63,868 bases of DNA, filler included, from Stramenopiles sp. TOSAG23-6 (GCA_900128565.1; 16 parts of 16 records of this genome joined end to end with filler, not necessarily neighbours in it), one strand, 5' to 3'; positions 5,529 to 63,834 are shown, counted from the first letter of the whole stretch. The notes: generated by a model from the letters alone, not told the origin. Made by a program: numbers and translations.

Positions 5529-7882
5529 TTACTTACTTCTATTTTTTTTTGTGACATTAAAGTTTTTGCTATTATTTTGTCTTTTCCTAGTTACAGGTCT
5601 TGACACTTTTGATTCAGAGTTGTGTTCTCCCTTGATAGTTGTGGATGTTTTATCAACTGCCACTGATGCAGCAGCGCTTCTTATATGCGCAGCTAAAGCA
5701 GATGTTGCACCGACTTGCATGGCATGGACCATATCTTTTTGAACAGTCGTTGCTTGTTGTGCAAGTACATTTCTAATAGCATTTGAATCCGTCGGTGAGA
5801 ATACGGAACTTGATGGTCCTAAAACATTCTCTAAGCCCATTAAAGAATATGCCGCAGCATTATGCGGAGACTCTGGACTATTTTGTATCGGAGCGGGATT
5901 GGGGTTAGGGTTTAGGGCAAGATTTTGAGGAGACGGGAAAACAAATTTTCCAATGTTTGATTGACCACTTGAAAGACCAGCGAGCATTAGAAGTGTAGCA
6001 GGTGTTAGTTGTTCATGAGGTGTTTGACTATTTATTAGATCTGAACCTTTACTTGTTGCAACACTAATATTCCGTTGATTTGTTGTGCTAGTACGATTCA
6101 CAGAATCAATATTATCAAATGTAAAAGCCCTTGGAGACTTTGGGGTTTTCGTCATTGATGTTAATTTATTGACATTTGAGTTGTTTGAATTTTTTATATT
6201 CATGGTTTCATTTGTTTCATTTCGTTTGGCAAATAGAGGACTATTAGGAGAAGATGCTAACTTGAATAATTCAGATATTTGGGCATCAATACCTTGATTC
6301 TGCCCAGATGGGTCAACTCCATATAGACTTGGAACCCCACCATTGTTATCTACCATCAAATCTTTAACAAACGCATCTAATGATAATGGAGCCGCTGGAG
6401 CATTTATCATGGGTGGTGCATCAGGCATTACAGATAAACCTTTCCGCCCTTTTTTGGTAGAATGTATTGTGAAAAATTATTGTTAAATTGGTTTTGTTAG
6501 GTACGAAACTTTCATAATAAAAAACAAAATTAAAAAAAATGGAAACGTACATAGTTTGGTGAAATTAAATTGTACCACGTTTCTGACGAAGGTAGTAACA
6601 TTTTGCTATTACTATTTAAGTTATCTGTCTCCACTTTGAGTCTATCAACAAATTTCATTTTAGAGTGTGAAGATTCGCCTTTCTTTGTCGGGGTATTACC
6701 TGAAGGTTGGGGAGGAGGCCTTCGTAAGCGTCTACCGGTAGGACTTCGTTTTGCTGATGGCGAAAAGTAATGTGAAAAATATTTTTTTTGGTGTACAAAA
6801 ATTCGTTAGGGACAAAATTTTCATAATAAAAAATTAAATTTTAAATTAAAGTGGACAACATACAAGGGTCTTACTGACGAAGCTTCAGCTCCATCTCTAT
6901 TCAAAAGCGATACAAGTAATTGTGTATGGAGTTTAGCTTTATCCATAATTTCGATATTATTCATTTTAGTTTCCTCTACATTTCCTGAAGCACCACCACC
7001 ACCACTACCACTCTTGGCAAGTTTTAACATTTCTAGAGTTTTTGCAGTAGACATTCCCTGTATAGAACTTGTTGTGCCTGTCGATATGCCGCCAGATAGA
7101 GATGGATAACCAAGTTGTTGCATCATCTTAGGACTAATTTTATCTAGTGTAGTGCCTCCCTCTATAAGTGCTTTCAACAAACTTTGACGTAGTGCCAAGG
7201 GAGACGCAGCAAGTGCATCGACAATCGAATTTTTGTTTCCATACAAATCAGTCTGGATCGTCTGAGGCCTCTTCCCGTCAATATGTTTCTTTTTTTTATT
7301 CGTTGAGTTTTTTGCTAAAATAGTAGATTGTAAGAGTTTATAACATCTATGAAATAAAGCTGAATCTGACTCTCCGACGTTGTCTAAAAGTGAAGAAAGA
7401 TTTAATGATGTTGGCATATTATGTACGGTTCGCAGTGATTTATCTAAGTCTTTCATTGTAACTTTCTTTCCCTTTTGAGCACCAATCAGTTTAATCTTTT
7501 TTGACATTTCTTTCGCTACGCGGCGCATGTTACGTCTCATGGTTGAGTACCAGTGATTCTTTATTGCGTTGTCTGTTCGCCCAGGTAAGCGTTTCGCAAT
7601 CTCCGCCCATTTATTTCCAACTTCTTTTTGACACTCATAGATTATTGCTTCTTCCTCAGGACTCCAAGCTTCACGCTTAATTGTAGGATCTAAATGGTTC
7701 AACCATCGTGTGCGACATTGTTTACCTGTACGGTTTATACCATTTCTAATAAGATTTTCTAATTCCAGTGCGACATTCGACCATTTTTTTACACCAAATT
7801 GTTTGACTAGGCGTACAATTATCTCGTCTTCTTTTCTTGACCATGCACGCCTTTCGTATCTATAGTTAGATCCTTTCATCAT
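5529..7882 (-). CDS. R2R3-Myb transcription factor, 3 exons (7882-6864, 6764-6551, 6461-5529)
   Basis: WSRKED...[14 protein letters not shown]...[23 protein letters not shown]; three ORF pieces join in frame on removing introns 6863-6765 and 6550-6462. Confidence 0.9.
6462..6550 (-). other. Non-canonical intron, GT-AT (89 nt)
   Basis: AACTAT|GTACGT...GTACCTAAC...TTTTTCACAATACAT|TCTACC; join gives [21 protein letters not shown]. Confidence 0.8.
6765..6863 (-). other. Non-canonical intron, GT-TT (99 nt), repeat family
   Basis: CCCTT|GTATGT...CCCTAAC...AAATATTTTTCACATTACTT|TTCG; join gives [10 protein letters not shown]. Confidence 0.75.
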
Positions 7883-8115
7883 TTCAGTAAATTAATAATT
7901 CCAAATATATTTTATGGGATATTTGGAATAACAATCTAGCACAATTGTTCTAANNNNNNNNNNNNNNNNNNNNNNNNNNNNNNNNNNNNNNNNNNNNTTA
8001 ATTAATTAANNNNNNNNNNNNNNNNNNNNNNNNNNNNNNNNNNNNNNNNNNNNTTTTTTTTCGTACGAAATTTTGTACCTAACGATTTTTTTTTGAAATA
8101 TTTTTCTAAATACAC

Positions 8116-8300
8116 TTATGGCTAAAGACGTTCGCATCGCAAACGCTATTCTTGACAATAACTATCCTACATGCTCAAAAATTATGAGAGAGACATTATC
8201 TTTATATGAAAAAGCTGTTATTAAACAAGGAAAACAAGCTGATTATACTGAAGTTGTGAAACTTTTGGAAGATCTTTGTAGTGGTAATAAGCTTGAGTAG
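8116..8300 (+). CDS. Last exon of a 3-hydroxyisobutyrate/6-phosphogluconate-dehydrogenase-like protein
   Basis: LMAKDVRIA...G.QADYTEVVKLLE resembles the NAD_binding_11 C-terminus; preceded by a repeat-intron 3' end. Confidence 0.65.
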
Positions 8301-10646: not shown

Positions 10647-10679
<33 letters not shown>

Positions 10680-10717
10680 TCCAATTCATATAAAATGATC
10701 TGTGCTTTTTTTATCTC

Positions 10718-11859: not shown

Positions 11860-12076
11860 GTACGTTTTCATTATGAATTTCAAATTTATTTTTCTTTTCG
11901 TACGAAATGTTGTACCTAACAATTTTTTTTTTTTTGAGTTTTTATTTCGATACGTTTTCATTATGAATTTCAAATTTNNNNNNNNNNNNNNNNNNNNNNN
12001 NNNNNNNNNNNNNNNNNNNNNTTAATTAATTAANNNNNNNNNNNNNNNNNNNNNNNNNNNNNNNNNNNNNNNNNNN

Positions 12077-13806: not shown

Positions 13807-15852
13807 TTATAAACCCAACACTTTTGCTGCATCATCCAACAATTGAAACGATTTCAGATATGATTTTGATTGTTGTTGTTGAAGCATTTCTTCAACAACA
13901 CCACCAACAGCACATGATTGAACTTGTCTAACAAAAAAAATATATATATTTTTACAATTTTGAACATTTGTTAGGTATGAAATTTCGTATGAATTTTTTT
14001 TTTAAATAAATTTGAAATTCAAAATGAAAATGTACCTACAAAACTCCTGTAATTGTGACGCATATGCATCTTCATATACTTTACAACATCCTCCATGATC
14101 AGCATCATATGGTTTTTTATAGTCATAGTATGAAAAAAATATTTTTTTTTTTCAAAAAAATACGTTAGGTACAAAATTTTGTATTGATTTTTTTTTTTTT
14201 TTTNAAAAAAAAATCGTATGTACAAAATTTTGTATTAAAAAAAAAANAAATGAATGATAATCACGTACATATCCATAGACAATTCCATCTACATTGACTT
14301 GTTGTACATAACTGTCATGTGATTTATGATAATCAATTTCAACATTTGAAGTTGAATATTCAGAATCATTAGGGTTAGGGTTATTTTTGAAAAAATGTTG
14401 AATTTTTCCTTTTAAATGTATTATCGAATTATTTGTATCAAATGAACTTGATGATGTACACCATGTAATCTTTGAATTTGGAAAAAGCCAACAAAGTAAA
14501 TCAATATCATGACAATACATTGAAAAAAAAATATTTCAAATTTGAGTTTTTTTTTTTGTTAGGTACAAAATTAACTATAAAAAAAAAATTAAATTTTTGA
14601 AAATTTTGAAAATTGTGATGAAAATGTACACACGAATTCCGTAATACAAATGACATATTTGTATCAGTTGGTACAGGATCAAATGAATGAATATAAATAT
14701 TTTTGGGTGCATTCTTTGTTAAAATAGCAGCTTTTATATATACTGTAAAAAAAATATTTTTCGATTTTTTTTTGAAATTTTTTATGTTAGGTACAAAATT
14801 TCGTACGAAAAAAAAAATATAGGAAAAAAAATTTATGTTGTATGAAAAAATACATGTCGATACAATCTGAGAAATTCTTTGTCAAATCTTCGATGAAAAC
14901 CAACCATTAAAGTTAAAGGAAAATTTGTGTTTCGTATTGCTTTTTCACGTGTTTTAGCAACTAAATGAAAATTTGTTACAGGTTTTTCTACCAAAACATA
15001 AATTGTGAAAAAAAATTTCAAAAAAACAAATTTTTTTTGTTAGGTACAAAATTTCGTATGAAAAAAAAAAAGAAAAATCAATTTCAGTAACATACATGTA
15101 ATCCAGCTTCAAGACATGAAATAGCTTGTTTTTCGTGTAATGCATCAGGTGTACAGATATACACTGCATTTACATGATTTGAATTATTCTTAATGTCACC
15201 TCTACTAAGGACAGATTCTTGAAATGATGAACCAATACATTGTGAAAAATTTCAAAAAAAAAAAAAAATTAGGTACAAATTTTCATACTTAAAAAAAAAA
15301 ATTCGAAATTGAATGTTAAAAACGTATCTAGATCTTGTAAATGGTGTCAACATTTTAACTTGTTTCGATAAGTATGTTCTACTTGGCTGTTTTGGAATAG
15401 CTTGTATAAATGTTCCAAAGGTACCATTTATCATAAAGAAATATTTCAAATGTTAAAATTTGTTAGGTACAAAAAAAAAATTCAAAAAAAAATTTTGAAT
15501 TTTTTTTTTTTTTTTGAAAAAAAAAATAAATTTAAAATTCATGATGTAAACGTACTGCACCGATAGGACGAATAGGAATGGCAAGATTTTGTATTGTACT
15601 TGAATTAGTGTATTCATCACCTGTTTGATTTTCCCATTTTTTTATATTTTGATGTGTCAAATTACTCAATTTTCTTTTTTTCAAATTTTGATTTTTCAAA
15701 TTTTCATCTTTTATTTCACTGACTTTAAAACGACACGTGTCACTATATTGAAGTGGTTGAAGTGGAACAACTTCACCTAATTGTTGTGAACGTGCTGCAG
15801 ATGATGCAACATATTGAGCTAAAGCGCAATCAGAGGCTGAAATTGGCCAACT
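13807..15852 (-). CDS. Gfo/Idh/MocA (inositol-2-dehydrogenase-like) oxidoreductase, 5'-truncated, 7 complete introns (15555-15426, 15327-15235, 15095-14998, ~14853-14738, 14629-14515, 14268-14125, 14035-13928)
   Basis: Joined exons give IGA|GTFG, AVYICTPDALH...EAGLH|VLVEKP, MVGFHRRFD, NSC|CHDID; 6 of 7 introns end in AT. Confidence 0.85.
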
Positions 15853-24149: not shown

Positions 24150-24912
24150 GCGTCCACTCAGAAAATTGTTTGGATTGGAATCCAACTCATTATTCTTCTA
24201 ATACATTTAATGTTTCTGTTGCGACATTAGTCGTTCTTCGAGGAAATTGTCTTTTCCGAGAAAACCCTAAACCTAATATAGAGAGTAAATGTAGTACAAG
24301 TTCAATTTCAAATTTTTCAAATGCCACCCCTCTGGAGAGAGATCATTTAGGAAATATCAGGCATAAAAATGTAAAAAATAATCGTAGAAATAGTCGAGGG
24401 GAAAATAACGAAAGAATATCGTATTTTTTTTTCAATTACGAATTTAATTTTTTTACATACGAAATTTTGTACCTAAACACAAACAAACAAAAAATATTTT
24501 TTCACAATATAGTGAAATAAATCGAGTCAAACAAAAATCAAAATGTGCCGAAGATAATAAAATATCTACACAATCGAAATATGAACAATTTAGTGAAAAT
24601 GTCGCTCAAGGTTTGTGTGCGTTCAATGATCCTCCATACCACACCACTTTTTCACGAAATTCATCAAATGCGCTTCGAGTATGTAGCTCCCCAATATCAT
24701 TCGGAGATCATGAAAAAAGTGTTTCTTTGGTGTCAAATTCACAACTGATTCTACCACCGATTCGCCGTGCTATTAGCTGTGCTACACAAATGTTTGATGC
24801 TCGAGCGTATCTGCACCAATACTCACAGCATGGTGTGGATGAAACAATGTTTGAGGAGACATTTATGGAGATGAATCAAATAGTGACTAACTATCAAAAC
24901 CTTTCAACCTAA
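24150..24912 (+). CDS. TUBD1: Delta-tubulin C-terminal exons (intron 24421-24512, GT-AG)
   Basis: VATLVVLRG...EKSVSLVSNSQ...QMFDARAYLHQYSQHGVDE..F. Confidence 0.8.
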
Positions 24913-24996: not shown

Positions 24997-27924
24997 CTAA
25001 ACATTTGTCATTAAATTTTTTGCTTCTTTGAAAAATTTCACAAATTCATCATCTGAACTCTCGACAACACTCATTAAACTCTGACACGCTTTTCTTAACG
25101 ACGATTCATCAGTCAAAGTTTCATTGCTGTGTGTCTTGCGCAAATCTTTCTCGAACTTTTCCGATGCCTTTTTAGCACAATCCACAACAGAATTTGGTAA
25201 TCGTGCCAATCGAGCAACATTAATACCATAACTTTTCGGACACGCGCCACTTTGTAGAGTATAAAGGAAAGTGACCCTCTGCTCTGGGTCTGCAACATCA
25301 ACATAGCTAGACATATGACCTAACTGTACACGAGGGTTGGATGTAAATCGGTCGACTAGATTATAGTAATGTGTTGAAAATAAAGTACGGCAGCACTTTT
25401 CTTGGGATAAATATTCCAACACAGCTGATGCTATAGCAGCGCCATCAAATGTGGACGTTCCACGACCTAATTCATCAATAATTAAAAGAGATTTACCTGT
25501 CGCTTGACGAAGCATTTCCGATGTTTCACTTAACTCTACAAAGAAAGTAGATTGGCCTTCCATTAATTTGTCACTTGCACCAAGTCGAGTAAATATGCGA
25601 TCCACAGGTGTCAACTCCATACTTTCTGCTGGAACATAACAACCAATTTGAGCCATAATTACTGCGATACAAGTCTGGCGAAGCAAAGTGGATTTACCAC
25701 CCATATTCGGTCCTGTCAGAAGTAAAGCAGCTGGAGATTCACCACCAAGAACTACACTATTTGGTATGAAATCACTCCCACTAAACGTCTCAACAACACA
25801 CGGATGCCAACCTTTCGTCACACGCAAAATATCTTTTGCGTCTTTTGAAGTTTTCTTAATAAAGGAAGGACGACACATAGTACCCGCTGAATTCTTTGAC
25901 ACAAGAGCTAAAGAAGAAATACAATCAAGTAATGCAATAGCTCTTGAGATTTCCTGCCATAACTTGCTATCAGAGTCGAAACGGAAGAAAAGTCTACGTG
26001 TCACATCTCGCAGCGAACTCGCCAGTCTTTCTTCGGCAATACCAAGGTCTTCAATCATACCCTCTAACTCACGTGTGCGATACCTTCGAGAACCTTTTTT
26101 CTTACTTGATACAGTATATTCATTAGGAACTTTTGNNNNNNNNNNNNNNNNNNNNNNNNNNNNNNNNNNNNNNNNNNNNNNNNNNNNNNNNNNGTTGTTA
26201 TTTTTCCCAAAGTAAATGATTCGTTGCCCTATACGTTTTTCTTGTTCTTTTTTATATTCTTCGAGTGCATTTTCAGCTTCCTTTACAGAATCTGAAGCAG
26301 CGTCATATTCTTCGTCTGTACCTGTTGGTGGAATAATTGTACCTGTCTCGAGAGCTTTTCTTTTATTTCCAATCATCACATCAAAATTTGAAAGTTTTTC
26401 TCTGATATCCGGAAATGAAACTACACCAACACCTGCAATGTTAACGCTAGAAACTTTATCAGATTCACCGGGGAGAATCGCACAAAGGAGAGGTGATTTT
26501 ATGGATGATTGATCAAATCNNNNNNNNNNNNNNNNNNNNNNNNNNNNNNNNNNNNNNNNNNNNNNNNNNNNNNNNNNNNNNNNNNATTTTCACCTTTCGC
26601 TTTCCATATATAACTTCTTCGTACATAACTGCGCGGCTTCCAGGATGGTGTTTATCTTTAACATCTTGCGGCACACCAAGTGTGTGTACATTTTGTAGTA
26701 ATCGTTCAATATCAGGTAACTGTCGAATATCCTGTATTTTGGAAAAATATTTCAAAATGTTTTTGTTAGGTACAAAAGTCTTATAAAAAAATAAATTCGA
26801 AATTGAAAAAAAATAAAACATACATTTCTCACTGCTTGCAAAGTTTCATCCAACTCCATAAGTTCTTCAATAGTATCCAAACGAAGATTGATATCTTTTA
26901 CTAACGAAAGGGGAGTACAAATCCATTGCTTTAATAGTCTACGGCCCATAGGACTAAAAGTATGATTAATAATATTAAATAAACTACCCTTAGCACGCTC
27001 CTTTACACTTCCTGTAGCGCCTTCTGCTACAAAAACTTCGAGATTTGTGAGAGTTGTCCCATCTAATGCAAGAGGAGATTCAGATGTTTCAGCGGAACTC
27101 ATTGCTTTTTCAATAGCAAGTGTGTTTTTATCCTGAACTACACTTCCTTCTTTCAGTGACTTATGATCAACAGACATCCATTCAAACCGTCTATGAGAGA
27201 CGAGATTTTTAGCCACGAAACATCTTCTAAGTAAACAGAGTGCCCCACCAAGCGCAGCTATTCCAGCAGTACCTAAAATTTCATCACTGCCATTCGCCTT
27301 CATCATTTCTTGCAACACAACTGGCCATGAATCTATCGAATCACCAAGAAAAGTTTTTTTTGATAAGAGTTCTCTAGAATATTCCGTTGCCCAACACTTA
27401 TCTTCCGCTGGTGGAAGTCGTGTGGTCAAAACCCCAGGGGCATGAACAGCAACCATTTTTTTGGTTCCAGGGCTTAACCCCTTTGACATAAAAACAATCT
27501 CACTCGGTTGAACTTGTACTAAAAGAGTGACTAGACGAGATCTTGAAACTGGATCATCCAAAAACTGTCCCATTTTAAAAATACCAGAAGCTGCATCAAT
27601 AACGACAAATCCCAACATACCTACATCTTTGTCATTTCCTATAGACCTGCCTTTTGCAGATATTCCAGACATTGCTGGTGCTGATACATCACTTTCATTA
27701 TTTGAAACATCAGATTCAAATATCGAGAGGAGAAGTTGTGGCGGATTTCCATCCTTATCAGCTTTATCGAGTACACTGAAAGTGCGAGTACCAGCGGATA
27801 ATACGGAACAAATCTCACGTTGTACGACCTTTCTCTTTGGCCCTCGACAAGTTTTGTTATACTCTTTCATTTGTTGAGGTGTTTCTGTCTGTTCTACTCG
27901 GGCTACTCGATATCCTCGACTTAC
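24997..27924 (-). CDS. MSH6: DNA mismatch repair protein MSH6, 5'-truncated; intron 26823-26732 (GT-AG) and an upstream intron end apparently at TT (27925)
   Basis: GYRVARVEQTETP, LDGTTLTNLE, LPDIERLL, LTGPNMGGKST, STFFVELSET, DELGRGTSTFDG, CPKSYG. Confidence 0.95.
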
Positions 27925-28165
27925 AAGTATTTTGGAAAAATATTTGAAAAAAAATCTAAAAAAATTTGTTAGGTACAAAATNNNNNNNNNNNNNNNNNNN
28001 NNNNNNNNNNNNNNNNNNNNNNNNNTTAATTAATTAANNNNNNNNNNNNNNNNNNNNNNNNNNNNNNNNNNNNNNNNNNNNTATTTCAAAAAAAAAAACT
28101 TAAATTTGTTAGGTACAAAATTTCGTACGAAAAAAAAATCAAATTTGAAAAAAAATTAAACATAC

Positions 28166-28894
28166 ATGTGGGGATTTGCCCTGTTCGTGACACGTGTAAA
28201 TTACCCCAAGAGCAGTTCCGACATCTACTGTAGCCAGAGCGCCAGTATTACAGTGGTGTAAAATATTTGCCCCATTTGGAACAACAGAAGCACCTAACTC
28301 ACCCATGTACTGTGAAAAAATTTGTAGAAAAAAATCGTTAGGTATGGAATTTCGTACAAAAAAAAAATTAAAATTAAATTTTATAAGGTACATGCGTCGG
28401 TTTATCTGAATATCATCATTGGCAAGTTCTTCAGCTTTTTTGTATAAACAAGTGACAAAGTCCTCTGCAGTTAATGAATGTTTGAGAGATTTCGCTAGAC
28501 GTAGCATAATGCTAGTGGCCCATGTTAAATTTACTGCAGTTGGTCGGGCAGAATCTAAGCATTTCTTTGCTGTACATAAGATATTTCGCAAGTCGTCCTG
28601 TGTCACTGTTTCGGGGTTTTGTTTAAAGCAGCTTTGGGCTGCCAATACCATACCATACGCACCAGCCACTCCAATTGCTGGTGCTCCACGAACAATCATT
28701 GTACGGATCGCAAAGGCAGTTTCTTCATATGTCGTACAGGTGAATACTTCTAGCTTGGAGGGAAGTAAAGGTTGGTTAATCAAATTCAAGCAACCTTGAC
28801 CGATAATTTTTTTTCCATCCTTGAACTCCCACCACACCGATCGCTTAGCGATTGTAGACTCCGTGAATACTGGTGATGGCTTTGAGTAATCCAT
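28166..28894 (-). CDS. MRI1: Methylthioribose-1-phosphate isomerase, 3'-truncated; intron 28391-28305
   Basis: IRTMIVRGAPAIG, SARPTAVNLTWA, HHCNTGALAT..GTALGVI. Confidence 0.95.
28305..28391 (-). other. GT-AT intron (87 nt, stop-free 3n)
   Basis: CGCAT|GTACCT...ATACCTAAC...TTTTTTCACAGTACAT|GGGT; join gives INRRMGELGA; the internal CAG is out of frame. Confidence 0.85.
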
Positions 28895-29546: not shown

Positions 29547-30085
29547 ATCAAGTATACAACAGAATTTATTATTCGGGTACATTGTTTTTTTTTAGTTGTT
29601 TTTTAATTTCGAATTTATTTTTTTTTCGTACGAAATTTTGTACCTAACAAGTAACAAAACTTCCAGGTGAGGGGCATATTTTTGAATTTCCATACCCTTT
29701 GCTAACGTATTTTAGCAATATCATTTGGACGAGTCCAAGACTCCCAAGACTCCAAGCAAAAATATGATAATACATACTAATAAAAAAAATCAGCATCTGG
29801 TACAACAGTCGAGCAATGTCAAATTCATTACAATCTAAATACCTTGAGCAGAGACCACGTAATCTCCACGTGTCATTTTTCGATCGACTTCGTTCGGTTC
29901 GCGCGACCCATCAAAATTTGATCAAGTTGTATCGTAAATGTACCAGGGGAGGGTAGCTACCTCTGATACAGTGATTATTACTCATTTACTCTGTTTAGTA
30001 TCCTTCAAAGAAACTTGTTATTCCAGTGTATTTTTATCATTCTAGTGCGAGGTTTTAGTTTATTTGGATTTGATTAATTGCAAGC

Positions 30086-31650
30086 ATGCGAAATTCAACT
30101 GCTATAGCAGAGAAAAAAATAGCCAAACTACCATCCAGCGTGAAATCACTCTTTCAGCAAGTAGTTTGGGCAAAACAGAAGAGCTACCCTTGGTGGCCAG
30201 CATTAGTGTTAAGTCCCCTCGACCTAAAGCTTTCTTATAAACAAGGGAAAGAATATTTGAAGAAGATGAACAAGTATTATTTTGTTATGTACTACGGTGA
30301 ACGCACCACGTGTTTGATTAAACACGAGATGATAAAACCGTGGAAGATGTTGAACGCGACTGATACACTCGCTGCGTTAGAAAAAGGTAGCCCGAAATCT
30401 AAGAATTTAGCAAAACAACTAAAGGTATCAATAAAGCAAGCGTTACACGAAATGGATTTCCCTGTGAATTTGATCTCTTTTCATGCGAAACGAACCTGTA
30501 ACTATATGGCAGCTCATGCGTGGGATAGTGAACCTTTGGAAATTAGTTCTACGAATAGTGGCACGTCTTTAGAAGGTCGAGTTGTGAGTATTTTTATCTC
30601 TAACGAAGAGTATGAAGGTGGAGGGTATGATTCTCTTGGATTTGTCAAGGCTTTTGATTCCTCCAAAAAAACAGATAAATATCTAATACGATATTTTGAA
30701 CTTGGACAAGACCCAGAAGAGTGGCTCGATCTTGGGGATGCGTCTAGAAAAGTAAAATTATTTCTAGATCCAAAAAAACAACAAAAAGAGAAGAAATGCG
30801 AAACCAAACAAACCAAAACAAAACTAAATGAAACATCTTCCCCTACTAGTGAAGACTTGGGGGAGTCTTTGAAAAAAGAAACTAATAAAGAAAAACACGA
30901 AAAAACTAACGAAAAAGAAAAAAACAATGAAAAAAACACTGAAAAAAAACAATATAACTAGTCCAGTAAAGTCAAATAATGAAGCGTATAACAGAATTAT
31001 GGAACGCCGCAACTCAGCCAAAACGGCAAGTAGTAGTAGTAGTAGTAGTAGCTCAAGCTCTTCAAGTTCAAGTAGTAGCTCAAGTTCTTCAAGTTCAAGT
31101 AGCAGCTCAAGTGATGATGATGAGCCGGTGCAAAATATCTCTAAAAAAAAGAAAAAAAAGAACCCTAACCCTAACAAAAATAAAACTCCAAAGAGAGGAA
31201 AGAAAAAAAAAGTGGATGATGGTCGACCAAAGCGACCACCTTCTGCATACTTAATATTCACAAAGAAAAATCGAACTCGTATCATTGAGGAAAATGAAGG
31301 TTTGAAACCAAAAGAAGTGATGTACGTTTTCATTTTTTTATTTTTGGTTTTCATACAAAATTTCGTACGTAACCAAAAAATATTTTTTTTTTTTTTTTTT
31401 TTTTTTGGTTTTCGTAAAAAAATTTCATACTTAATGAATTTTAAATTTTTGAAATATTTTTCATCAACACATGTCAGCCTTGGGGAGTGCGTGGTCTAAA
31501 CTTACCCCTGAAGAAAAACAACCATATGAAGAAGAAGCAAATGTGGCAAAGATTCAGCACGGTGTAGATATGAAAGAATGGAAATCTAAAAAGAAATCAG
31601 ATTTATCTGCAGAGAAAACTTTAAAGAAATTAAAGGAAAAAGAAGACAAT
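30086..31650 (+). CDS. PWWP + HMG-box chromatin protein; frameshift near 30930-30960 (A-tract) and GT-AT intron 31322-31472 within the HMG box
   Basis: VVWAKQKSYPWWPA; PKRPPSAYLIF...PKEVM|SALGSAWSKLTPEEKQPYEEEA. Confidence 0.85.
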
Positions 31651-31894
31651 GTACGTTTTTTTTTTTTTTTTTTTTTGAATTTTTTTTTTTTCGTACGAAA
31701 TTTTGTACCTAACAAAATATTTTTTTTTTTTTGAAATATTTTTCCAAAATACATTGAGACTTCAATGGCTGCCTTTTCAAGCAGAAGAAAAAGAATCCAA
31801 TGGATCTGTTGATGTGACTGTAATGAAAGATCTTTTATCAACCGAACTTGAAATGTTACGACTTTCCGTAGCAAAATTATACGTTTTAAAAAAA

Positions 31895-31940: not shown

Positions 31941-32164
31941 TTTTCCCTAAAAAAAAAAAAAAATTTTAAAAAAAAANNNNNNNNNNNNNNNNNNNNNNNN
32001 NNNNNNNNNNNNNNNNNNNNTTAATTAATTAANNNNNNNNNNNNNNNNNNNNNNNNNNNNNNNNNNNNNNNNNNNNGTTTTCATCATGAATTTCAAATTT
32101 ATTTNTTTTCATACGNAANTTTTGTNCCNACAAATTTTTTGTGAAATATTTTTTCACATTACAT

Positions 32165-35885: not shown

Positions 35886-36068
35886 GTACGTTTTCATTTC
35901 AATTTTGAATTTATTTTTTTCGTACGAAATTTTGTACCTAACGATTTTTTTTTTGAAATATTTTTTCANNNNNNNNNNNNNNNNNNNNNNNNNNNNNNNN
36001 NNNNNNNNNNNNTTAATTAATTAANNNNNNNNNNNNNNNNNNNNNNNNNNNNNNNNNNNNNNNNNNNN

Positions 36069-39740: not shown

Positions 39741-39863
39741 TTATTTTTTTCTTAGGTACGAAATTCGGTACAAAAAAAAATGAAATTCATGGGTTAAGTG
39801 GTCCAAGGATCTGTGAAAGACAGATTTATCATATATACTATGAAATTGCAATGATTCCATAAT

Positions 39864-39955: not shown

Positions 39956-40139
39956 NNNNNNNNNNNNNNNNNNNNNNNNNNNNNNNNNNNNNNNNNNNNT
40001 TAATTAATTAANNNNNNNNNNNNNNNNNNNNNNNNNNNNNNNNNNNNNNNNNNNNAAAAAAAATTGTTAGGTACAAAATTTTCAAAAAAAAAAAATTCGA
40101 TTTTTTTTTTTTCGAAAACAAAAAAAAAATAAAACATAC

Positions 40140-41445
40140 ATTGATTTCAATCGTTCAATATCTTGTGCATATTCTTTTAATAATCCACGTTTTGTTAAAC
40201 GTTTATTCACTTCTGGACGATTTTTAATTGATTTTGCTTTAATTGCATATTCAAGTGTACTTAAAGTTTCATCGACTGAGAGTAGTGAAGGTGAACAGGT
40301 AGCAATATATTTTGAAAAAATATTTCAAAAAAAATCTAAAAAAATCGTTAGGTACAAAATTTACTATGAAAAAAAAAACAAATTCGAAATTTAAAAAAAA
40401 ATAAAACATACATGATACAGGCTTTTGCACGCCCACCTAATGACTCCTGTAATAATCGTGTCAATTTTGAATCACGATATGGTACATGAGGTGAATTAGA
40501 CACTAAAGCATTAATTACACGACCAAGAGTTAATAATGATTGATTGATTTTTTTAGCTTCTCTTTGTCGACTTCCCGTTGCTCCAGAACGACCAGCACAT
40601 TCTGAACCTGCTAAATCGACTAAATGTAATTTTCCAACTTTTAATAAATCTTCACCATCTGGCATTGTTTCTTTGATATGTACAGTAAGTGTAAATAGAC
40701 AATGTGATCGACTTGATTTTTCATTCATAATTGTTCCAGCCACTTTACGTTTTCTCATTGCATAACGCATGACTTTATATAAAGCATCGGGCGATTGAAC
40801 ATGAACTTCTTCGAGGTTTTGACAAAAGATTCCTTTACGTTTATCATCGACAATACGAAGACGTGGAGCTGCAGAAGCTTCAACGGGTTCAGAATCAGGG
40901 TCATTTGTCGCTTCACAATTAGCAACTCCTTGTAACAAATCTTCTAAAACTTCATTATAAAGTTCTAAATAAGACACTTTAATTGTATACTCTGCATTCT
41001 TTGCTTCAAGTTGTTCAAAAATGCTAGTTACACAACGAGGAATTACACCCCAATTATCACGGGATTCCATATCACCTTCCATTGTGAAAGTTTTACCTGT
41101 ACCTGTTTGACCATAGGCGAAAACAGTACAGTTAAAACCATCGAGAACTTCTTCAACTAGAGGTTGTACAGTCTGTTCATACACTTCCTTTTGCGTTGCA
41201 TATTGACCAAAGACATTATCATATTTATAACGCTTTGTATGAGTGCCTTCGGAAGACTCGTCTTTACCATTCTTTTTCCGGCGTTTTAATTGCACGGATA
41301 TAAGACTCCGAGAACTGTCAGCGCTAACTGAAGAAACAGTACACGTACTCTCTTCTTTGTCATTGAGAGGGCGAACCCGAACAACAACTTTTACATTTAC
41401 TGCTTTTGCATTAGAATTTTCAGACTGACTTGAAGATGTCGTCAT
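40140..41445 (-). CDS. Kinesin-5 (BimC/Eg5-like) motor, 3'-truncated; GT-AT intron 40411-40305
   Basis: [61 protein letters not shown]...ETLSTLEYA. Confidence 0.95.
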
Positions 41446-51897: not shown

Positions 51898-52081
51898 ACT
51901 ATGGAAGATGTAGGGANNNNNNNNNNNNNNNNNNNNNNNNNNNNNNNNNNNNNNNNNNNNTTAATTAATTAANNNNNNNNNNNNNNNNNNNNNNNNNNNN
52001 NNNNNNNNNNNNNNNNTAGGTACAAAATTTCGTACGAAAAAAAAAATTCAATTTCAAATTTAAAAAAAAAATAAAACATAC

Positions 52082-53885
52082 ATATGCAATAGTCACAAAT
52101 AAAGGAAATAATTCAGATAAGGCCATCCAAAATAAATCTTGATCATATGCAATTGTTGGCATTCCTAAAAAGCCCCGAATATCCATGACTCCTGCTCCTG
52201 TATATGAAATTCCTAAAAAAGTCGATTCTGGAAAATTTTCAATTTTGTTTTGTTCTACAATCCAATTATCAATTACAGCTTGTAGGGTAACAAAACCACT
52301 ACGGAGATAATCATTAACATACCCTGTTCTCCCTTTCTTTCCATCATGTATTGTGAAAAAAACACGAAATTAAAAAAAAAAAAAAAAATCGTTAGGTAAA
52401 AAATTTTTTTACCAAAAAAAAAAAAAATCAAAATTGAAAAAAAAATAAAACATACATTGAGGTCCAGCGGAATGAAAAATAACTGCAGCACCAATAACTT
52501 GTCCACTATACCTGTACCCAGGTGATTGTACAAAATGATCCCTGTAGTGTGAAAAACAAAAATAGGAAAAAGTTGTTTGGTACAAATTTTCGTATGAAAC
52601 CAAAAAAAAAAAAAATTCTATAAAAAATTTCTATAAAAAAATTATTTTTTTCTTAGGTACAAATTTTCGTATGAAAAAAACATTCTATAAAAAAAAAACA
52701 TACATGTCTTCCTCTGTCCACAATCCCTCTGCTGGGAAATTCTTACCACTTTCAAAGTCATCATCAGAGAAATCATCAGGATGTTTTAAATCTCTATATG
52801 TTACTTTTATATCCAATGCTTCTCTAAATGATGAATAGTCAGGTAAGCTTTGTAATAAATTATTGTAAAATGTCTTAGCAGCCAGTTTTGTTCCATCATC
52901 TGCAGATTTTGGTGTTGTGATGAGCAATTTTTGTACTGGACATAATTTTTTGATTAATTTTGCTATATTCATTATATTTTTAGCTTTTGTAAAATCAATC
53001 TCGATTAGTCTTTGTACTAATTCGCGTTGTAAACATTGTACATGAAAGTTAGCTCCCCCATTATGTAAAAACAAACTTCCCCAACATATATTGTGAAAAA
53101 ATATATATTTTTTTTTTTTAAATTTGTTAGGTACGAAATTTCGTACAAAAAAAAAAAAAAAAAAAAAAAAAAAACATACCTCTAGGACGCAAGTCTGCTT
53201 TATTTTCTAGCCGATTTTGAAAATGAGAGACTTGATTTCGAATATTATCAATACCATACACGGAACAACGTGGATCGCCTGGGAAAAGAGGTGGGAATGT
53301 CTTTGATAATGATGTAGAAATTTTTGCGATTGTATCAAAGCCAAGAGATTCAATTAGTTTTGATCCTTGTACTGTCGTCTTTGCACGTTTAAGAAACTCA
53401 GCTTGTTGTTCTGGCGGCAAATCATCCCAACCTCGAAGTCTTGTACCATTGAGAGTGATATCAATATATTCCTGAAGGAGTTGAGTGGCAACATCTTTTA
53501 ATTTTGGGTTATCTTCGACTATTAAACAAACGTCACAACAGAGTAAGTTACGCTGCTCGAAATCAGCGAGTGGTGGTATATCTGAGCTCAGAGCTGACAC
53601 ATTTCGAACAGCATCTCTATGTTTCACATGGATCAAATCACGTAGAGAAACAAGTACCATGAGCAAAATAGGCATTGCAAGTATTTCTGATAGAGCAAGA
53701 GGCCAACGACGCTTTTTTAGTTTGCAATTTTTCCAAAACATTAAGGAAACATTACGACGAGAGCACCCACAGAATGAGTAGCAACGACAGTCATCCGACA
53801 AGTCATTTCTATACCAGGCGGACTTCCGCCGTTGCGCAAACGGTCTCATTGACTCGTCATGCTCATCCATATCATTTAAATCCAT
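52082..53885 (-). CDS. ABC transporter subfamily A, N-terminal part; introns 53179-53086 (GT-AT), 52703-52542 (GT-AG), 52455-52346 (phase mismatch, exon probably lost), donor at 52081
   Basis: LMFWKNCKLKKRRW...EI..P; YLRSGFVTLQAVID. Confidence 0.85.
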
Positions 53886-54394: not shown

Positions 54395-55644
54395 ATGGAA
54401 GAGGAATGCACTGTATGTCGTAGTACATCCTTTTACGAAAATGAGATTGGAGAGCTTGTTTGCAATGAGTGTCAGTCTGTCTCTTTGCAAGTATCTCAGG
54501 CCAATGTTGAAGTCGAACTCGATTTAGGAAACATTGGTCGTCAAGGTCCTTTTGGTGTTGGTATTTTATCTGCTAAAGGGAAATCGGAAGCGAAACGAAG
54601 AAGAGATGAAAGTGGAACAAATCGAAAAGAAAGTTGTTCATTGACTGCCAAAGCCTGTCTAGAATCATTCCAATGGTTACTACATCAGCAAGCATTACAT
54701 CTCACTACTCAAAAAGGTTGTCATTCACGCCTTGTACCTACAATGAAACAGCTTTGGTTAAGGTATGTACGATTTTTGTTCCATCCCAGTCTTGCACATA
54801 AAAGTTGTACAACATCAAATACGTCTAGTACTCAGAGGAGTGGTGTATCTACACACCAACAACAAACAGATCCATCTTCTTTCCTTGATAATCTATCATG
54901 GTTGACTCAAAATGATGATGTTGTATCAAATTCTCAATCATCACAATTATCAAGTCATGTAAATGTTTCTTCTTCAAAGCATCAGTTACCTCATACCACT
55001 AACCCTAATTCCAACCCTAATTCCAACATGAGACAAATTGAAAGAAAAATTCTTTCTTGGTTTTCTGGTCAGTTTAAAAAAAATAGTAATAACACAAAAT
55101 GTGGAAAAGAAAAATCGAGGTGTAATGATCGTGTACGTTTTCATTATGAATTTCAAATTTATTTTTTTTTTTTTTGGTTTTCGTACGAAATTTCGTACCT
55201 AACATTTTTTTTTTTTTTGAGTTTTTTTTTCGATACGTTTTCATTATGAATTTCAAATTTATTTTTTTTTTTTTGGTTTTNNNNNNNNNNNNNNNNNNNN
55301 NNNNNNNNNNNNNNNNNNNNNNNNNNNNNNNNNNNNNNNNNNNNNNNNNNNNNNNNNNNNNNNNNNNNNNNNNNNNNNNNNNNNNNNNNNNNNNNNNNNN
55401 NNNNNNNNNNNNNNNNNNNNNNNNNNNNNNNNNNNNNNNNNNNNNNNNNNNNNNNNNNNNNAATTGAATTTTTTTTTTTTTTTTTTTTTTTTCGTAAAAA
55501 AAATCATAATTTTTTTTTAACCAATTTGATTTTTTTTTTTTTTTTTCACAATACATATTATGGCTGCACAAATATGTCGCTGGGCAAGGTCTGGTTCTAT
55601 ACCATTTTTATACGAGAATACATTTCGATGTATGCCGAAAAAAT
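54395..55644 (+). CDS. TAF1B/Rrn7-like Pol I initiation factor, fragmentary
   Basis: N-terminal CxxC...G.LVCxxC zinc ribbon; FQWLL..QA...KQLWLRY; later exon IMAAQICRWARSGSIPF. Confidence 0.7.
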
Positions 55645-56058
55645 GTATGTTTTTTTTTTTTTTTTTANNNNNNNNNNNNNNNNNNNNNNNNNNNNNNAAT
55701 TGAATTTTTTTTTTTTTTTTTTTTTTTTCGTAAAAAAAATCATAATTTTTTTTTAACCAATTTGATTTTTTTTTTTTTTTTTCACAATACATATTATGGC
55801 TGCACAAATATGTCGCTGGGCAAGGTCTGGTTCTATACCATTTTTATACGAGAATACATTTCGATGTATGCCGAAAAAATGTATGTTTTTTTTTTTTTTT
55901 TTANNNNNNNNNNNNNNNNNNNNNNNNNNNNNNNNNNNNNNNNNNNNTTAATTAATTAANNNNNNNNNNNNNNNNNNNNNNNNNNNNNNNNNNNNNNNNN
56001 NNNGTACGAAATTTTGTACCTAACAAAAAACATTTTGAAATATTTTTCCAAAATACAT

Positions 56059-60022: not shown

Positions 60023-60098
60023 GATAATAAAAAAACTGTTAGGTACAAAATTTCGTACGAAAAAAAAATTCAAAAAAAAAAATTAATTTTGGAAACAA

Positions 60099-60575
60099 AC
60101 TTTGTTTTGATGTCCATCCCAAAGTGAATGCATTCATTTGGTCCACATTAGCAGTCATTGAAATCCAATTTTGATCATCTGTTGCAGTGTTTGGTTCACC
60201 ATCTTTTGATAGGTGAAATAAATTTTTATTTTCCATTGCATAATTCATTTTATCGGAACAAAGCACAGAATTGTCCAAAACATAATCTAAATTATCAACA
60301 TTGCTAAATACACCAATAGAAAGATTCTTATATTGTGCAGGTGCTTGAATAATTAAATCTGCAAAACCGATTTTACCACTACCAGGTGGAACATATGCAA
60401 ATTTACCTAAAACACGAAAGCAATCAGATGGTCCTGAGCCATATATTTGAATATTTTCAGGTTCAATGATAATCGAATGTACTGCATCTATAGAAAAAAA
60501 AAGAGCATACAAGATGAAATATGTCGTTAATTTGTGTTTCTTTTTACCATGACCAAGTAAAGCTATGTTTTGCAT
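60099..60575 (-). CDS. First exon of a secreted/membrane protein, possibly GPR180/TMEM145-like (mirror copy 63282-63758)
   Basis: Signal peptide; FRVLGKFAY; ends at a repeat-intron copy. Confidence 0.5.
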
Positions 60576-60965
60576 ATCGAAGTATTGTGATTACAATAGT
60601 CTTCTCTGGATCAAATCTAAATAGTTTGATAGTACTATGTAAAGGTTGGTAATAGTTGTAGTTGTAGTTATAGTTGTAGTAGTATTAAAAACTATACTAG
60701 TATATAGATTGAAGTAGTATGTGAATAAAGTAACCGTCGGTCCGTTTTTTTAAAAGTTTTTTGTAAACAAAGTATAAGCTAGGGTTAGGGTTTTTGTTGT
60801 ATGACTGACTGTTTGATTATTCGAGAGAGCATTTCGAGAGATTGTGAAAAACGTTGTTATTCCATTGTTTTCACATACGTACTACTACGTATTCATATGA
60901 ATCGTATCTACATGTAACACTAGTGTAATTGTAAATATTTCATTGTATTGTGTATTTGATAGAAA

Positions 60966-61756
60966 ATGTCATCATCATCGGTACTTGAGGAAAATAAAAA
61001 ATTCTCTGTCAAAGAATTGAAAGCAATCATTGTTTCTCATGGTTTTTCATATACTGATTGCATAACAAAGAGTGATTTGTTGGAAAGAGCCACAGAAGCT
61101 CAACGTAATCCACAGAAAGAAACAAAAACAGCAAGTATTCCAACAGTCCAAACGTTTCATCAAAGTCAACAAAAGATTGGAGTGTTTGACTGTGAAGTTG
61201 TAAATACATGTTCTGGAGATGAATGCGACTTTGCCATTGTCTTTTTTCATGGATACAACGCTTCCGCTGCCAACTTTGCACCTTTAGCCAAAACACTTGG
61301 GAAACATCCCATATTATCACATAGAGCTCAACGCATTCGCTGGATTTTCCCTCAAGCGAGTCCAAAACCTGAATGGTGGCCGCTTAATTTGATGGAATGG
61401 CAAATGGCCATGCTTGTAGGTTTTTTTTTTTTTTTCATTTGTTAGGTACAAAATTTCGTACGAAAAAAAAATTTTTCATTTTTTTTTTTGTATACAATTT
61501 CATACTTAACCACTAAAATTTTTTTTTTTTTTTTTTGAAAAATACAGTCAGGTACTGATGCCGTAGGTAAACTTCTACGAACAACTCCTGAAGGATTTCG
61601 TGTTGCATCAACAAAAAGTTGTCAATTTATTTCGGATGTAGCACAATATTTAAAAATACCTGTATCCAAAATTATTATTGGAGGGTTTAGTCAAGGAGCA
61701 ATGATGTCAGTTGAAACAGCTTTGTCTCATACTGAACAATGTTTAGCTTTATTAGT
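60966..61756 (+). CDS. Phospholipase/carboxylesterase (acyl-protein thioesterase-like) with N-terminal SAP-like motif; intron 61416-61547 (GT-AG); mirror copy 62101-62891
   Basis: SVKELK.I...G..Y..C..K.DL; IVFFHGY, WIFPQA, WWPL, IIIGGFSQGAM. Confidence 0.88.
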
Positions 61757-63834
61757 GTATGTTTTTTTTTTTTGAAAAAAAAAAAAAAAAAAAAAAATTT
61801 NAAAATTTTTTTTTCGTAGTAATTTTTNTACCTAAAAAAAAAAAATTAATTTTTCAAAAAAAAAAAAAAAAAATTTCAAAATGTTTTTTTTCGTAGAAAC
61901 TTTTGTACCTAAGAAAAAAAAAAAAATTAATTTTTTTTTTTTTCTTAGGTACAAAAGTTTCTACGAAAAAAAACATTTTGAAATTTTTTTTTTTTTTTTT
62001 TGAAAAATTAATTTTTTTTTTTTAGGTANAAAAATTACTACGAAAAAAAAATTTTNAAATTTTTTTTTTTTTTTTTTTTTTTCAAAAAAAAAAAACATAC
62101 ACTAATAAAGCTAAACATTGTTCAGTATGAGACAAAGCTGTTTCAACTGACATCATTGCTCCTTGACTAAACCCTCCAATAATAATTTTGGATACAGGTA
62201 TTTTTAAATATTGTGCTACATCCGAAATAAATTGACAACTTTTTGTTGATGCAACACGAAATCCTTCAGGAGTTGTTCGTAGAAGTTTACCTACGGCATC
62301 AGTACCTGACTGTATTTTTCAAAAAAAAAAAAAAAAAATTTTAGTGGTTAAGTATGAAATTGTATACAAAAAAAAAAATGAAAAATTTTTTTTTCGTACG
62401 AAATTTTGTACCTAACAAATGAAAAAAAAAAAAAAACCTACAAGCATGGCCATTTGCCATTCCATCAAATTAAGCGGCCACCATTCAGGTTTTGGACTCG
62501 CTTGAGGGAAAATCCAGCGAATGCGTTGAGCTCTATGTGATAATATGGGATGTTTCCCAAGTGTTTTGGCTAAAGGTGCAAAGTTGGCAGCGGAAGCGTT
62601 GTATCCATGAAAAAAGACAATGGCAAAGTCGCATTCATCTCCAGAACATGTATTTACAACTTCACAGTCAAACACTCCAATCTTTTGTTGACTTTGATGA
62701 AACGTTTGGACTGTTGGAATACTTGCTGTTTTTGTTTCTTTCTGTGGATTACGTTGAGCTTCTGTGGCTCTTTCCAACAAATCACTCTTTGTTATGCAAT
62801 CAGTATATGAAAAACCATGAGAAACAATGATTGCTTTCAATTCTTTGACAGAGAATTTTTTATTTTCCTCAAGTACCGATGATGATGACATTTTCTATCA
62901 AATACACAATACAATGAAATATTTACAATTACACTAGTGTTACATGTAGATACGATTCATATGAATACGTAGTAGTACGTATGTGAAAACAATGGAATAA
63001 CAACGTTTTTCACAATCTCTCGAAATGCTCTCTCGAATAATCAAACAGTCAGTCATACAACAAAAACCCTAACCCTAGCTTATACTTTGTTTACAAAAAA
63101 CTTTTAAAAAAACGGACCGACGGTTACTTTATTCACATACTACTTCAATCTATATACTAGTATAGTTTTTAATACTACTACAACTATAACTACAACTACA
63201 ACTATTACCAACCTTTACATAGTACTATCAAACTATTTAGATTTGATCCAGAGAAGACTATTGTAATCACAATACTTCGATATGCAAAACATAGCTTTAC
63301 TTGGTCATGGTAAAAAGAAACACAAATTAACGACATATTTCATCTTGTATGCTCTTTTTTTTTCTATAGATGCAGTACATTCGATTATCATTGAACCTGA
63401 AAATATTCAAATATATGGCTCAGGACCATCTGATTGCTTTCGTGTTTTAGGTAAATTTGCATATGTTCCACCTGGTAGTGGTAAAATCGGTTTTGCAGAT
63501 TTAATTATTCAAGCACCTGCACAATATAAGAATCTTTCTATTGGTGTATTTAGCAATGTTGATAATTTAGATTATGTTTTGGACAATTCTGTGCTTTGTT
63601 CCGATAAAATGAATTATGCAATGGAAAATAAAAATTTATTTCACCTATCAAAAGATGGTGAACCAAACACTGCAACAGATGATCAAAATTGGATTTCAAT
63701 GACTGCTAATGTGGACCAAATGAATGCATTCACTTTGGGATGGACATCAAAACAAAGTTTGTTTCCAAAATTAATTTTTTTTTTTGAATTTTTTTTTCGT
63801 ACGAAATTTTGTACCTAACAGTTTTTTTATTATC

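Follow-up and report, generated by a model that had tools for sequence, protein, structure and literature searches.

We describe a family of short repeated introns in a stretch of DNA of 63,868 bases, called the window below, from Stramenopiles sp. TOSAG23-6 (GCA_900128565.1). The window consists of 16 contigs of ~3.9 kb each, spliced together with N44-TTAATTAATTAA-N44 linkers; genes that face each other over the linkers are not genomic neighbours, and the window does not represent one locus. It is AT-rich, with a GC content of 24-45% by 2-kb window, mostly near 33%. The sequence is eukaryotic and gene-dense, with Pfam matches to protein kinase, Myb, MutS, Strawberry notch, kinesin and mitochondrial-type glutamyl-tRNA synthetase (GluRS), and further to LRR, WD40, U-box, PWWP, NSUN5, OBG-type GTPase and other families. 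One tRNA-Asp is the sole Rfam family match across the window, and the Rfam scan found no small nuclear RNA gene in it.

Introners, i.e., mobile elements that act as introns, are the best-documented source of new introns. To our knowledge, nearly all described families have GT-AG ends, and in the few that deviate (Fritillaria, Amoebophrya) neither consensus end is kept. Introners themselves are thus already known; what is new here is an introner-like family with a non-AG, mostly AT acceptor. Our starting point was an earlier note on this DNA, made from the sequence alone, which regarded the introns as one repeat family with hallmarks of introners and of MITEs (miniature inverted-repeat transposable elements).

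A repeated intron family and its boundaries

An nhmmer search with a profile of 11 full copies yielded 48 matches at E<0.01. When mirror matches in the inverted duplication of the last contig and one reverse-strand match on a copy are left out, the family occupies ~40 loci, from 6462 to ~61930, within 62,079 non-N bases. The hosts are unrelated genes (Myb, oxidoreductase, MutS, IF-2B, HMG, Strawberry notch, kinesin and others), which agrees with the claim of a single repeat family. The unit is ~100 nucleotides (nt) long and consists of GTAYGTTTT, TTTCGTACGAAATTTTGTACCTAAC, a T-run, and ATATTTTTTCACAATAC plus two nucleotides. Alignment of 16 single-module copies reproduced the consensus quoted in the note, reading (AT)GTAYGTTTT, a variable T-rich part with AATTTCGAATTT or CATTATGAATTTCAAATTT, then TTTTCGTACGAAATTTTGTACCTAAC, A/T runs and finally (TTGAA)ATATTTTTTCACAATAC-AT. 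Among these 16 copies the mean pairwise identity is 0.70 and the identity of copy to consensus 0.69-0.95, over ~90 aligned columns that include blocks outside the splice signals. The palindrome of 12 base pairs (bp) described previously, TTTCGTACGAAA, is strongly enriched, with 24 matches at up to one mismatch (17 of them exact) compared to 0.39 expected, but one exact match, at 12862, encodes F-R-T-K in a U-box exon where no family copy lies, and two further exact matches are mirror duplicates. Scaffolds do break at the copies: 15 of 32 contig ends fall within a copy or no more than 45 nt from one.

The boundaries of the 22 complete copies follow one rule, in which the intron starts with the G of GTAYGT and stops two bases past the ATAY motif; with the coordinates fixed in this way the flanking reading frames join. 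Copies are cited below by the coordinate of their 5' end. The strongest boundary case is the oxidoreductase gene (15855 to 13810, minus strand), where removal of seven successive copies leaves one frame with 0 internal stops, the other two frames having 22 and 49. The sole homologue found with the 48-amino-acid oxidoreductase exon, P0245, aligns all the way between the N-terminal extension and the C-terminus and is free of gaps at all 7 junctions, including RPIGA/GTFG (the GxGxxG motif), AGLH/VLVEKP, NSC/CHDID and VYGY/DYKK. Pfam coordinates are continuous over four more junctions, namely 40411 (kinesin), 31322 (HMG box), 28391 (IF-2B) and 32306 (AAA_34), and at the first three the copy splits a codon (profile positions 300/302, 31/33-34 and 94-95/97-98). 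In the kinesin-5 alignment 59 of 60 homologues are gap-free within six columns of the junction, and the split codon, ATT, specifies Ile, which is also present in 29 of the 30 displayed homologues. An in-frame AG that would preserve the conserved residues is absent from each of these homologue- or profile-checked introns. Judged at the level of the predicted proteins, removal of the copies appears to restore the coding sequence, and their description as introns in coding genes is borne out. Only this cut gives back open frames together with the conserved motifs of the proteins. Junctions 26823, 32799 and 33752 are placed by frame continuity alone, since short exons gave no Pfam match (8 of 20 fragments searched).

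These boundaries define the splice signals, which we counted over 30 5' ends (8 from partial copies) and 29 3' ends (7 partial). The first two intron bases are GT in 28 of the 30, with one GC and one AT, whereas the last two are AT in 19, AG in 6, TT in 3 and AC in 1. At -3 a pyrimidine is present in 28 of 29, and the next exon begins with G in 16 of 29. Because the cut lies two bases past ATAY, most copies have the acceptor pyrimidine-A-T, and fewer have pyrimidine-A-G; as read from the DNA, it looks like a canonical YAG/G site with its last base changed to T. Complete introns (n=22) are 87-162 nt long, and the branch block GTACCTAAC is 34-50 nt from the 3' end in 20 of them, the others having 20 and 112 nt. 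The ends are of the U2 type at the donor (GT or GC, GTAYGT-like), whereas the AG acceptor of that class is found at 6 of 29 ends. The preceding exon ends with AT in 16 of 30 cases compared to a background of 0.097 (P=2.5e-9). That the window contains an introner-like family, most copies of which end with AT, is in our view strongly supported.

The non-AG ends could alternatively mean that a divergent minor (U12-type) spliceosome tolerant of such ends removes the family, in parallel to the U12-type expansion in Physarum. The donor is conserved to +9, the branch block GTACCTAAC agrees with TTCCTTAAC at 6 of 9 positions (consensus as given in the available text of 10.1101/2020.10.12.336362), and the family has GT-AT ends and one AT-AT pair. 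The same text reports GT-AT (17%) and AT-AT (8%) among the non-canonical U12-type boundaries of Physarum and proposes an origin from a transposon flanked by a TA direct repeat; further likenesses are the mass gain, conserved ends forming short inverted repeats and a dinucleotide direct repeat. However, in the Physarum introns it describes the donor reads RTATCTT and the branch site, TTTGA, is placed 10-12 nt before the end, whereas the donor of our family fits GTATGT, not RTATCCTT, and varies freely at +3 to +6 (GTATTT, GTACAT, GTACCT, GTTTGT, GTAGGT), and its branch block is separated from the 3' end by a long T tract, the distance and the tract both being U2-like. Neither an RTATCCTT donor nor a branch site resembling TTCCTTAAC close to the 3' end characterizes the family, and we consider removal by a minor spliceosome quite improbable.

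The copies have consequences for annotation, and existing gene models are wrong at family sites. The database kinesin model GSMAST32...1057.1 is identical in blocks to window positions 40140-41451 (minus strand), reads into two family introns and drops conserved motor motifs, including a conserved 11-residue stretch. The GluRS model GSMAST32.ASY1.ANO1.1058.1, identical in blocks to 41785-43614 (plus strand), has five spurious in-frame gaps in one uninterrupted open reading frame (ORF). Because published models mishandle the copies, protein sets from such assemblies are corrupted wherever the family sits.

Descent and spread of the copies

Similarity among the copies reaches into blocks without a known splicing role (CATTATGAATTTCAAATTT or TTCAATTTCGAATTT), and it is structured. 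Two subfamilies can be distinguished: 1) copies starting with GTAC that contain ..CAT(Y)ATGAATTTCAAATTT and 2) copies starting with GTAT that contain ..ATTTTTTTTT(C)AATTTYGAATTT. The two sites are linked, CAT at +9-14 occurring in 9 of 15 copies with C at +4 and in 1 of 15 with T at +4 (Fisher P=0.005). The central module is duplicated in three copies (14268, 31322 and 52703), the same head-to-tail dimer with the joint ..GATAC/GTTTTCATT occurs at two loci (11860 and 55133), the intron at 61416-61547 has a reverse-orientation module beside a sense module (read directly from the sequence), and a signal-less fragment at 39743-39788 lies past a gene end. The pattern favours a family related by descent over shared splice signals; the earlier note had named similarity confined to such signals among the observations that would count against it, and the linked non-signal blocks and duplicated modules are not of that kind.

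The competing possibility is that these are old introns at ancestral positions, alike only through the long and strict signals of the spliceosome. It would account for the fact that the three best-conserved blocks are those at the donor, branch site and acceptor, but it does not account for the shared non-signal modules or the linked subfamily differences, for introns of other sequence in the same contigs (e.g., the stretch at ~11212-11340), or for assemblies that break at copies. In addition, the closest homologues, each called as one ORF, extend across these positions (P0245 through seven, P0126-P0128 through the kinesin position), a weak argument because these are products of gene callers from sources of uncertain type. 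We give this explanation very little credence.

Our preferred reading, to which we assign a probability of roughly one half, is that a high-copy family of short spliceosomal introns has spread, in a marine stramenopile with AT-rich DNA, as a mobile element like an introner. Every copy brings a complete set of splice signals, namely a yeast-like donor GTAYGT, the branch block GTACCTAAC, a T-rich tract and the 3' block ..TTTTCACAATAY-AT. The major (U2-type) spliceosome would remove the copy from GT to AT and accept U as the last intron base, which is likely to be tolerated through a G(+1)-U(-1) wobble instead of the usual G-G contact; the A-starting copy (15327) ends with T and could form an A-U pair, although it is a single copy and a sequencing error may be involved. 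Entry into genes would take place as DNA, with a preference for sites immediately after AT, and a duplication or microhomology of up to 2 nt may take part without creating the acceptor. Because of the inverted module, the fragment and the dimers, spread at the DNA level is the more likely. A broader proposition, which we put forward tentatively and with somewhat less than even confidence, is that the major spliceosome of this lineage routinely uses a pyrimidine-A-U 3' splice site and that, at ~1 copy per 1.5 kb, most introns in the genome are GT-AT. If true, a free-living protist would have a GT-AT-dominant intron set in which the end bases pair G-U, or A-U in the AT-AT copy. With a textbook donor and branch site and only the last acceptor base changed, the family would provide a clean natural experiment on 3' splice site recognition and the second catalytic step.

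Several observations weigh against the preferred reading. Where exon and intron end in the same bases, the DNA leaves the intron register ambiguous; GT..AT, TG..CA and AT..AC registers all yield one identical message. We prefer the GT register because GT hardly varies, one copy having the classical variant GC, while the preceding two exon bases vary, AT in 16 of 30 being accompanied by eight other dinucleotides in the remainder. Comparison with the P0245 residue at the three non-matching oxidoreductase junctions is divided: one backs the GT register (S against I), one the shifted register (N, closer to D than A), and the third neither. The pair of introns 52703 and 52455 closes the frame only if one of them stops right after ..TAC. 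A representative protein search with the exon after 52455 gave 3 matches, of which P0123 alone, a single distant fragment, is relevant; it favours 52455 ending ..ATAC, by 8 score units only, and an assembly indel is an equally good explanation of the misfit. Pfam gave no match in the gene with these two copies, which is at most tentatively labelled 'ABCA-like'. Environmental contigs from four runs, two of them RNA, were aligned to window positions 28082-31976; no spliced joints occur in the two RNA runs over this interval, where contigs break at the repeat, and two contigs of the RNA libraries, X6 record 14 and X9 record 29, pass from exon into intron 31322 unspliced, which could reflect pre-mRNA or carried-over DNA. 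The credentials as a transposon are poor, with inverted termini of ~4 nt and weak end-to-end pairing (mean -2.1 compared to -0.94 kcal/mol for shuffles). All usable intron copies are sense-oriented, which also fits RNA-mediated spread. Finally, the last two exon bases equal the last two intron bases in 13 of 22 introns (10 AT/AT, 2 TT/TT and 1 AG/AG), compared to 9.13 in shuffled pairs (P=0.025), as a real 2-bp duplication would give.

This excess bears on the model of the earlier note, in which a non-autonomous cut-and-paste transposon generates a 2-bp target-site duplication, mostly AT, whose downstream copy becomes the acceptor, so that splicing restores the message. The note had counted 11 matches among 22 introns, where our own set of 22 gives 13; its statement that the TT-ending introns follow exon TT holds for both complete ones. 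Matching over 3 or 4 nt shows no excess, and most of the signal is contributed by the two TT/TT pairs and the AG/AG pair; introns not ending in AT match the exon more often than shuffles (P=0.048). The frequency of exon-end AT also speaks for a duplication, as does the fact that 5 of the 6 copies nearest the consensus match, compared to 5 of 10 other single-module copies. Since copies differ by ~20% from the consensus, an old duplication may have decayed, which could explain many of the mismatches. A precedent exists in ISL2EU / PHIS DNA transposons, for which the available text of PMC4122938 gives 2-bp duplications, typically AT, and a preference for AT-rich targets, and which are the only superfamily with such a duplication that we found in print.

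Against a duplication, 9 of 22 introns are unmatched, among them the consensus-nearest copy 53179 (AG/AT), and three unmatched junctions, CA/AT, AG/AT and GT/AT in the oxidoreductase gene, are confirmed by the homologue. The match test itself weakens to 12 of 20 (P=0.095) once two AG-ending introns with weak 3' family motifs are dropped. The AT lies within a conserved 3' block, with the near-invariant pyrimidine before it, unlike a random target copy, and the inverted termini are very short. No transposase domain was found in the 30 ORFs scanned within the window, consistent with the earlier remark that none is visible, and neither the THAP-DDE transposase nor the YqaJ ORF by which, along with matching termini, an ISL2EU member would be recognized is among these 30 ORFs. 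Because of the unmatched junctions, three of them homologue-confirmed, the AT behaves as part of the element's conserved 3' block and the exon-end AT as a preferred flank; the excess of exon-end AT could be due to insertion preference, microhomology or donor context. The TT/TT pairs and the ISL2EU precedent keep the derivation of the acceptor from a duplication in contention as a possible mechanism, which we regard as unlikely.

The lack of convincing inverted termini and the 9 unmatched ends speak for spread through RNA, in which excised introns reverse-splice behind AT, are reverse-transcribed and recombine into the genome, so that no duplication arises and AT is the intron's own end. In agreement with such a route, the boundaries of the copies are the splice boundaries, and the usable copies are all sense in transcribed regions, untranslated regions (UTRs) included. 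The reverse-oriented module in intron 61416-61547, the splice-site-free fragment past the gene end and the head-to-tail pairs joined as ..ATAC/GTTTT are difficult to obtain in this way, and the TT/TT pairs and the match excess in the non-AT subset are not predicted. Compared with DNA-level movement of an introner-like element, which we prefer, reverse splicing seems to us improbable.

Two further possibilities were rejected. A TA-target (Tc1/mariner-like) reading of the termini fails in that the G..C bases outside TA leave with the intron. Excision from DNA, as for internal eliminated sequences of ciliates, does not suit copies that come with donor, branch and T-tract signals and turn up in both DNA and RNA libraries from the environment.

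The environmental runs also provide information on the copies themselves. Over 28082-31976 no precise deletion of any copy (empty site) was found in the DNA runs, where again contigs break at the repeat; because of these breaks, absence in the contig data is uninformative. Repeat parts draw hundreds to thousands of contigs in each of the four runs while unique parts have single-digit depth, and the summed repeat depth of 13,000-72,000 compared to ~7 for unique parts should not be read as a copy number. In run X3, which covers 3 of the 4 complete introns in the interval (31651 is uncovered), copy and flanking exon meet at an unchanged position for 28391, 29577, 31322 and the partial copy 28165. 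Record 3 of this seawater DNA run has 29601-29645, i.e., 45 bases of the 3'-UTR copy, replaced by 4 letters, which may be a real indel polymorphism or a repeat-induced join. A metagenome scan with a core 22-mer gave 3 loci (GC 0.28-0.50), none of them a family copy by profile, and a scan of viral sequences for the family gave 0 matches.

Relation to known intron families

The designation as introner-like rests on one element being present in unrelated genes whose proteins are restored by its removal, and in this respect the earlier characterization was apt; its MITE component is thin. The constant inverted termini are only GTAY/RTAC, so that the short inverted repeats reported before are real over 4 nt, but their extension into a T-run and A-run occurs in a subset only; inverted repeats of ~10 bp or more, as in MITEs, are lacking and no autonomous partner is visible. 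Whole-intron folds are unremarkable, with z of -1.9 to +0.8 in 5 of 6 copies and -4.1 in one. Fungal introner-like elements likewise carry all splice signals and are not known to have clear duplications or inverted repeats at their termini; they end in GT-AG, have predicted folds that are stable, and spread by an unknown mechanism; our family differs from them in its mostly GT-AT ends and in folds that are not stable.

Introners are established in many lineages (available text of PMC9860276 and PMC12130899). Those of Micromonas and Aureococcus, and the wider set surveyed there, resemble the family in being one short non-autonomous element with splice signals in many genes of a marine protist. 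Neither 'MAST' nor 'stramenopile' occurs in the main text of these two articles. According to the part of PMC7789003 available, the Aureococcus elements always have direct repeats, terminal inverted repeats of constant length and canonical splice motifs, whereas our family has a mostly AT acceptor, inverted termini of ~4 nt and a putative duplication only. The curation outlined in the accessible text of PMC12130899 starts from annotated introns and distrusts unfamiliar splice sites, so that it would probably have overlooked a GT-AT family where the assembly is poorly annotated.

Non-canonical families offer closer parallels. In Fritillaria borealis, non-GT/AG splice sites are the ends of non-autonomous transposon-like introners that the U2-type spliceosome removes (10.1101/2025.08.15.670264, in the text available). 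In this tunicate GT/AG is kept in <10% of introns and both ends deviate, whereas in our protist family GT is kept in 28 of 30 and only the last base of the acceptor is changed. Amoebophrya, another marine protist, likewise has repeated non-canonical introns with MITE-like traits and no transposase nearby, as far as the available text of PMC7789003 goes. Its elements have inverted-repeat hairpins of 8-20 nt, direct repeats of 3-5 nt over the boundaries and no fixed terminal dinucleotides; our family has neither such hairpins nor such direct repeats: its donor is strictly GTAYGT, its end is a defined YAT, pairing is weak and any repeat measures 2 nt at most. A literature search found no description of the family or of GT-AT-dominant introns, a weak negative in that most subscription journals and supplements were outside its reach; a paper on single-cell genomes of marine stramenopiles (MAST) mentions introns only in its methods, and an Incisomonas genome paper leaves them unmentioned.

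Inventory of copies and minor observations

The copies are listed in Table 1. The gene upstream of the copy at 29577 presumably encodes a protein resembling eIF5A.

Table 1. Copies and parts of copies of the intron family in the window, with exon and intron end dinucleotides where given
Feature	Positions	Strand	Remarks
Complete copy, Myb-domain gene	6462..6550	-	exon AT / intron end AT; frames join across
Complete copy	6765..6863	-	exon TT / intron end TT
3' part of copy, 5' part lost in contig gap	8054..8115	+	AC at +2 position; just upstream of ATG
Head-to-tail copy pair, joint ..GATAC/GTTTTCATT	11860..11977	+	contig end truncates
Complete copy, last intron of oxidoreductase gene	13928..14035	-	AG end, exon AG
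Complete copy, central module duplicated	14125..14268	-	ends ..CATACTAT; homologue fits this end, not ..CATAC
Complete copy, oxidoreductase gene	14515..14629	-	exon GT / intron end AT, no match
Complete copy, oxidoreductase gene	14738..14853	-	AT/AT
Complete copy, splits ..LEAGLH/VLVEKP..	14998..15095	-	AT/AT
Complete copy starting ATACGT (A at +1)	15235..15327	-	ends AT, exon AG, no match
Complete copy, splits GxGxxG motif	15426..15555	-	exon CA / intron end AT, no match
3' part of copy at contig end	15858..15984	-	approximate 3' boundary
3' part of copy at contig start	16085..16180	+	ends AT
3' part of copy at contig start	24086..24149	+	ends AG
Complete copy, GTATTT..ATAG	24421..24512	+	exon TC; probably 5'-UTR intron
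Complete copy, MutS homologue	26732..26823	-	exon AT / intron end AG
3' part of copy at contig end	27925..27981	-	TT at +2 position
5' part of copy, contig start truncates	28083..28165	-	exon AT
Complete copy, IF-2B/MtnA-like gene	28305..28391	-	AT/AT; profile 94-95 / 96 / 97-98
Copy without 3' block, GT..AG, 3'-UTR position	29577..29666	+	30 nt past stop codon
Complete copy, central module duplicated, inside HMG box	31322..31472	+	AT/AT; profile 31 / 32 / 33-34
Complete copy, stop codon TGA directly after junction	31651..31754	+	AT/AT
3' part of copy at contig start, Strawberry-notch gene	32077..32164	+	ends AT
Complete copy, Strawberry-notch gene	32306..32412	+	AT/AT; AAA_34 profile 240 / 241
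Complete copy	32799..32899	+	exon TT / intron end AT, no match
Complete copy starting GCACGT	33752..33851	+	exon TT / intron end TT
5' part of copy, contig end truncates	35886..35968	+	exon AT
Fragment, central module only	39743..39788	-	past end of + strand gene; not functional intron
5' part of copy, kinesin gene, contig start truncates	40057..40139	-	exon AT
Complete copy inside kinesin motor domain	40305..40411	-	AT/AT; profile 300 / 301 / 302
3' part of copy at contig end	47867..47929	-	ends AT
5' part of copy, contig start truncates	52017..52081	-	exon AT
Complete copy	52346..52455	-	3' end either ..ATACAT or ..ATAC
Complete copy, central module duplicated	52542..52703	-	3' end either ..CTACAG or ..CTAC
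Complete copy nearest consensus (0.95)	53086..53179	-	exon AG / intron end AT, no match
Head-to-tail copy pair as at 11860, running into N gap	55133..55280	+	joint ..GATAC/GTTTTCATT
3' part of copy at contig start	56004..56058	+	ends AT
5' part of copy starting GTTTGT	60029..60100	-	exon AA; mirrored ~63757-63828
GT..AG intron, esterase-like gene	61416..61547	+	reverse central module, sense module, family 3' block; mirrored in duplicated half
5' part of copy (GTATGTTTT), into centre of inverted duplication	61757..61930	+	exon GT

Two more places may involve the family. A short interruption at 32575-32660 (plus strand) in the Strawberry-notch gene starts with GTACGTG, contains many Ns and was missed by the profile; it looks like a degenerate family member. 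At 55462-55903 two near-identical stretches of ~200 nt, rich in T-runs and ending ..ATGTATGTTTTTTTT (the 5' end of a copy), surround an N gap, an arrangement that is probably the result of scaffolding through the repeat. The last contig (59989-63868) duplicates itself in inverted orientation about a centre near 61930, within a family copy, and its flanks mirror each other at 60029/63828 and 61437/62420; it resembles either a chimera produced by whole-genome amplification or a hairpin that occurs naturally at the repeat.

A scan for other GT-AG introns gave few candidates. An intron-like stretch outside the family at ~11204-11340 (plus strand) has TACTAAC, a terminal AG and three copies of TTCAAATGYATT; over ~11212-11340 it reads GTAAGA..TACTAAC..AG and is canonical-looking, with a 5' end that cannot be placed by frame. 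In the first contig, 360-484 (minus strand) is a candidate GT-AG intron, GC- and C-rich (GTAAGTAA...CACTAACTAAC...CAG) and unlike the family. This contig includes a stretch of 45% GC that carries the WD40 gene, and it may belong to another compositional class or another organism.

Short runs of telomere type (TTTTAGGG/TTTAGGG-like) lie inside contigs at ~47040-47075 (plus strand), 60790-60805 and 14365-14380, the last being coding (NPNPN). At the contig end at 39870-39955 (minus strand) there are ~3 tandem copies of a ~37-nt unit (TTTTATTAGAGATAATAAAAATATAGATTGAAGTCAA), and a (CT)n microsatellite of ~30 nt at 10655-10690 lies upstream of a small gene.

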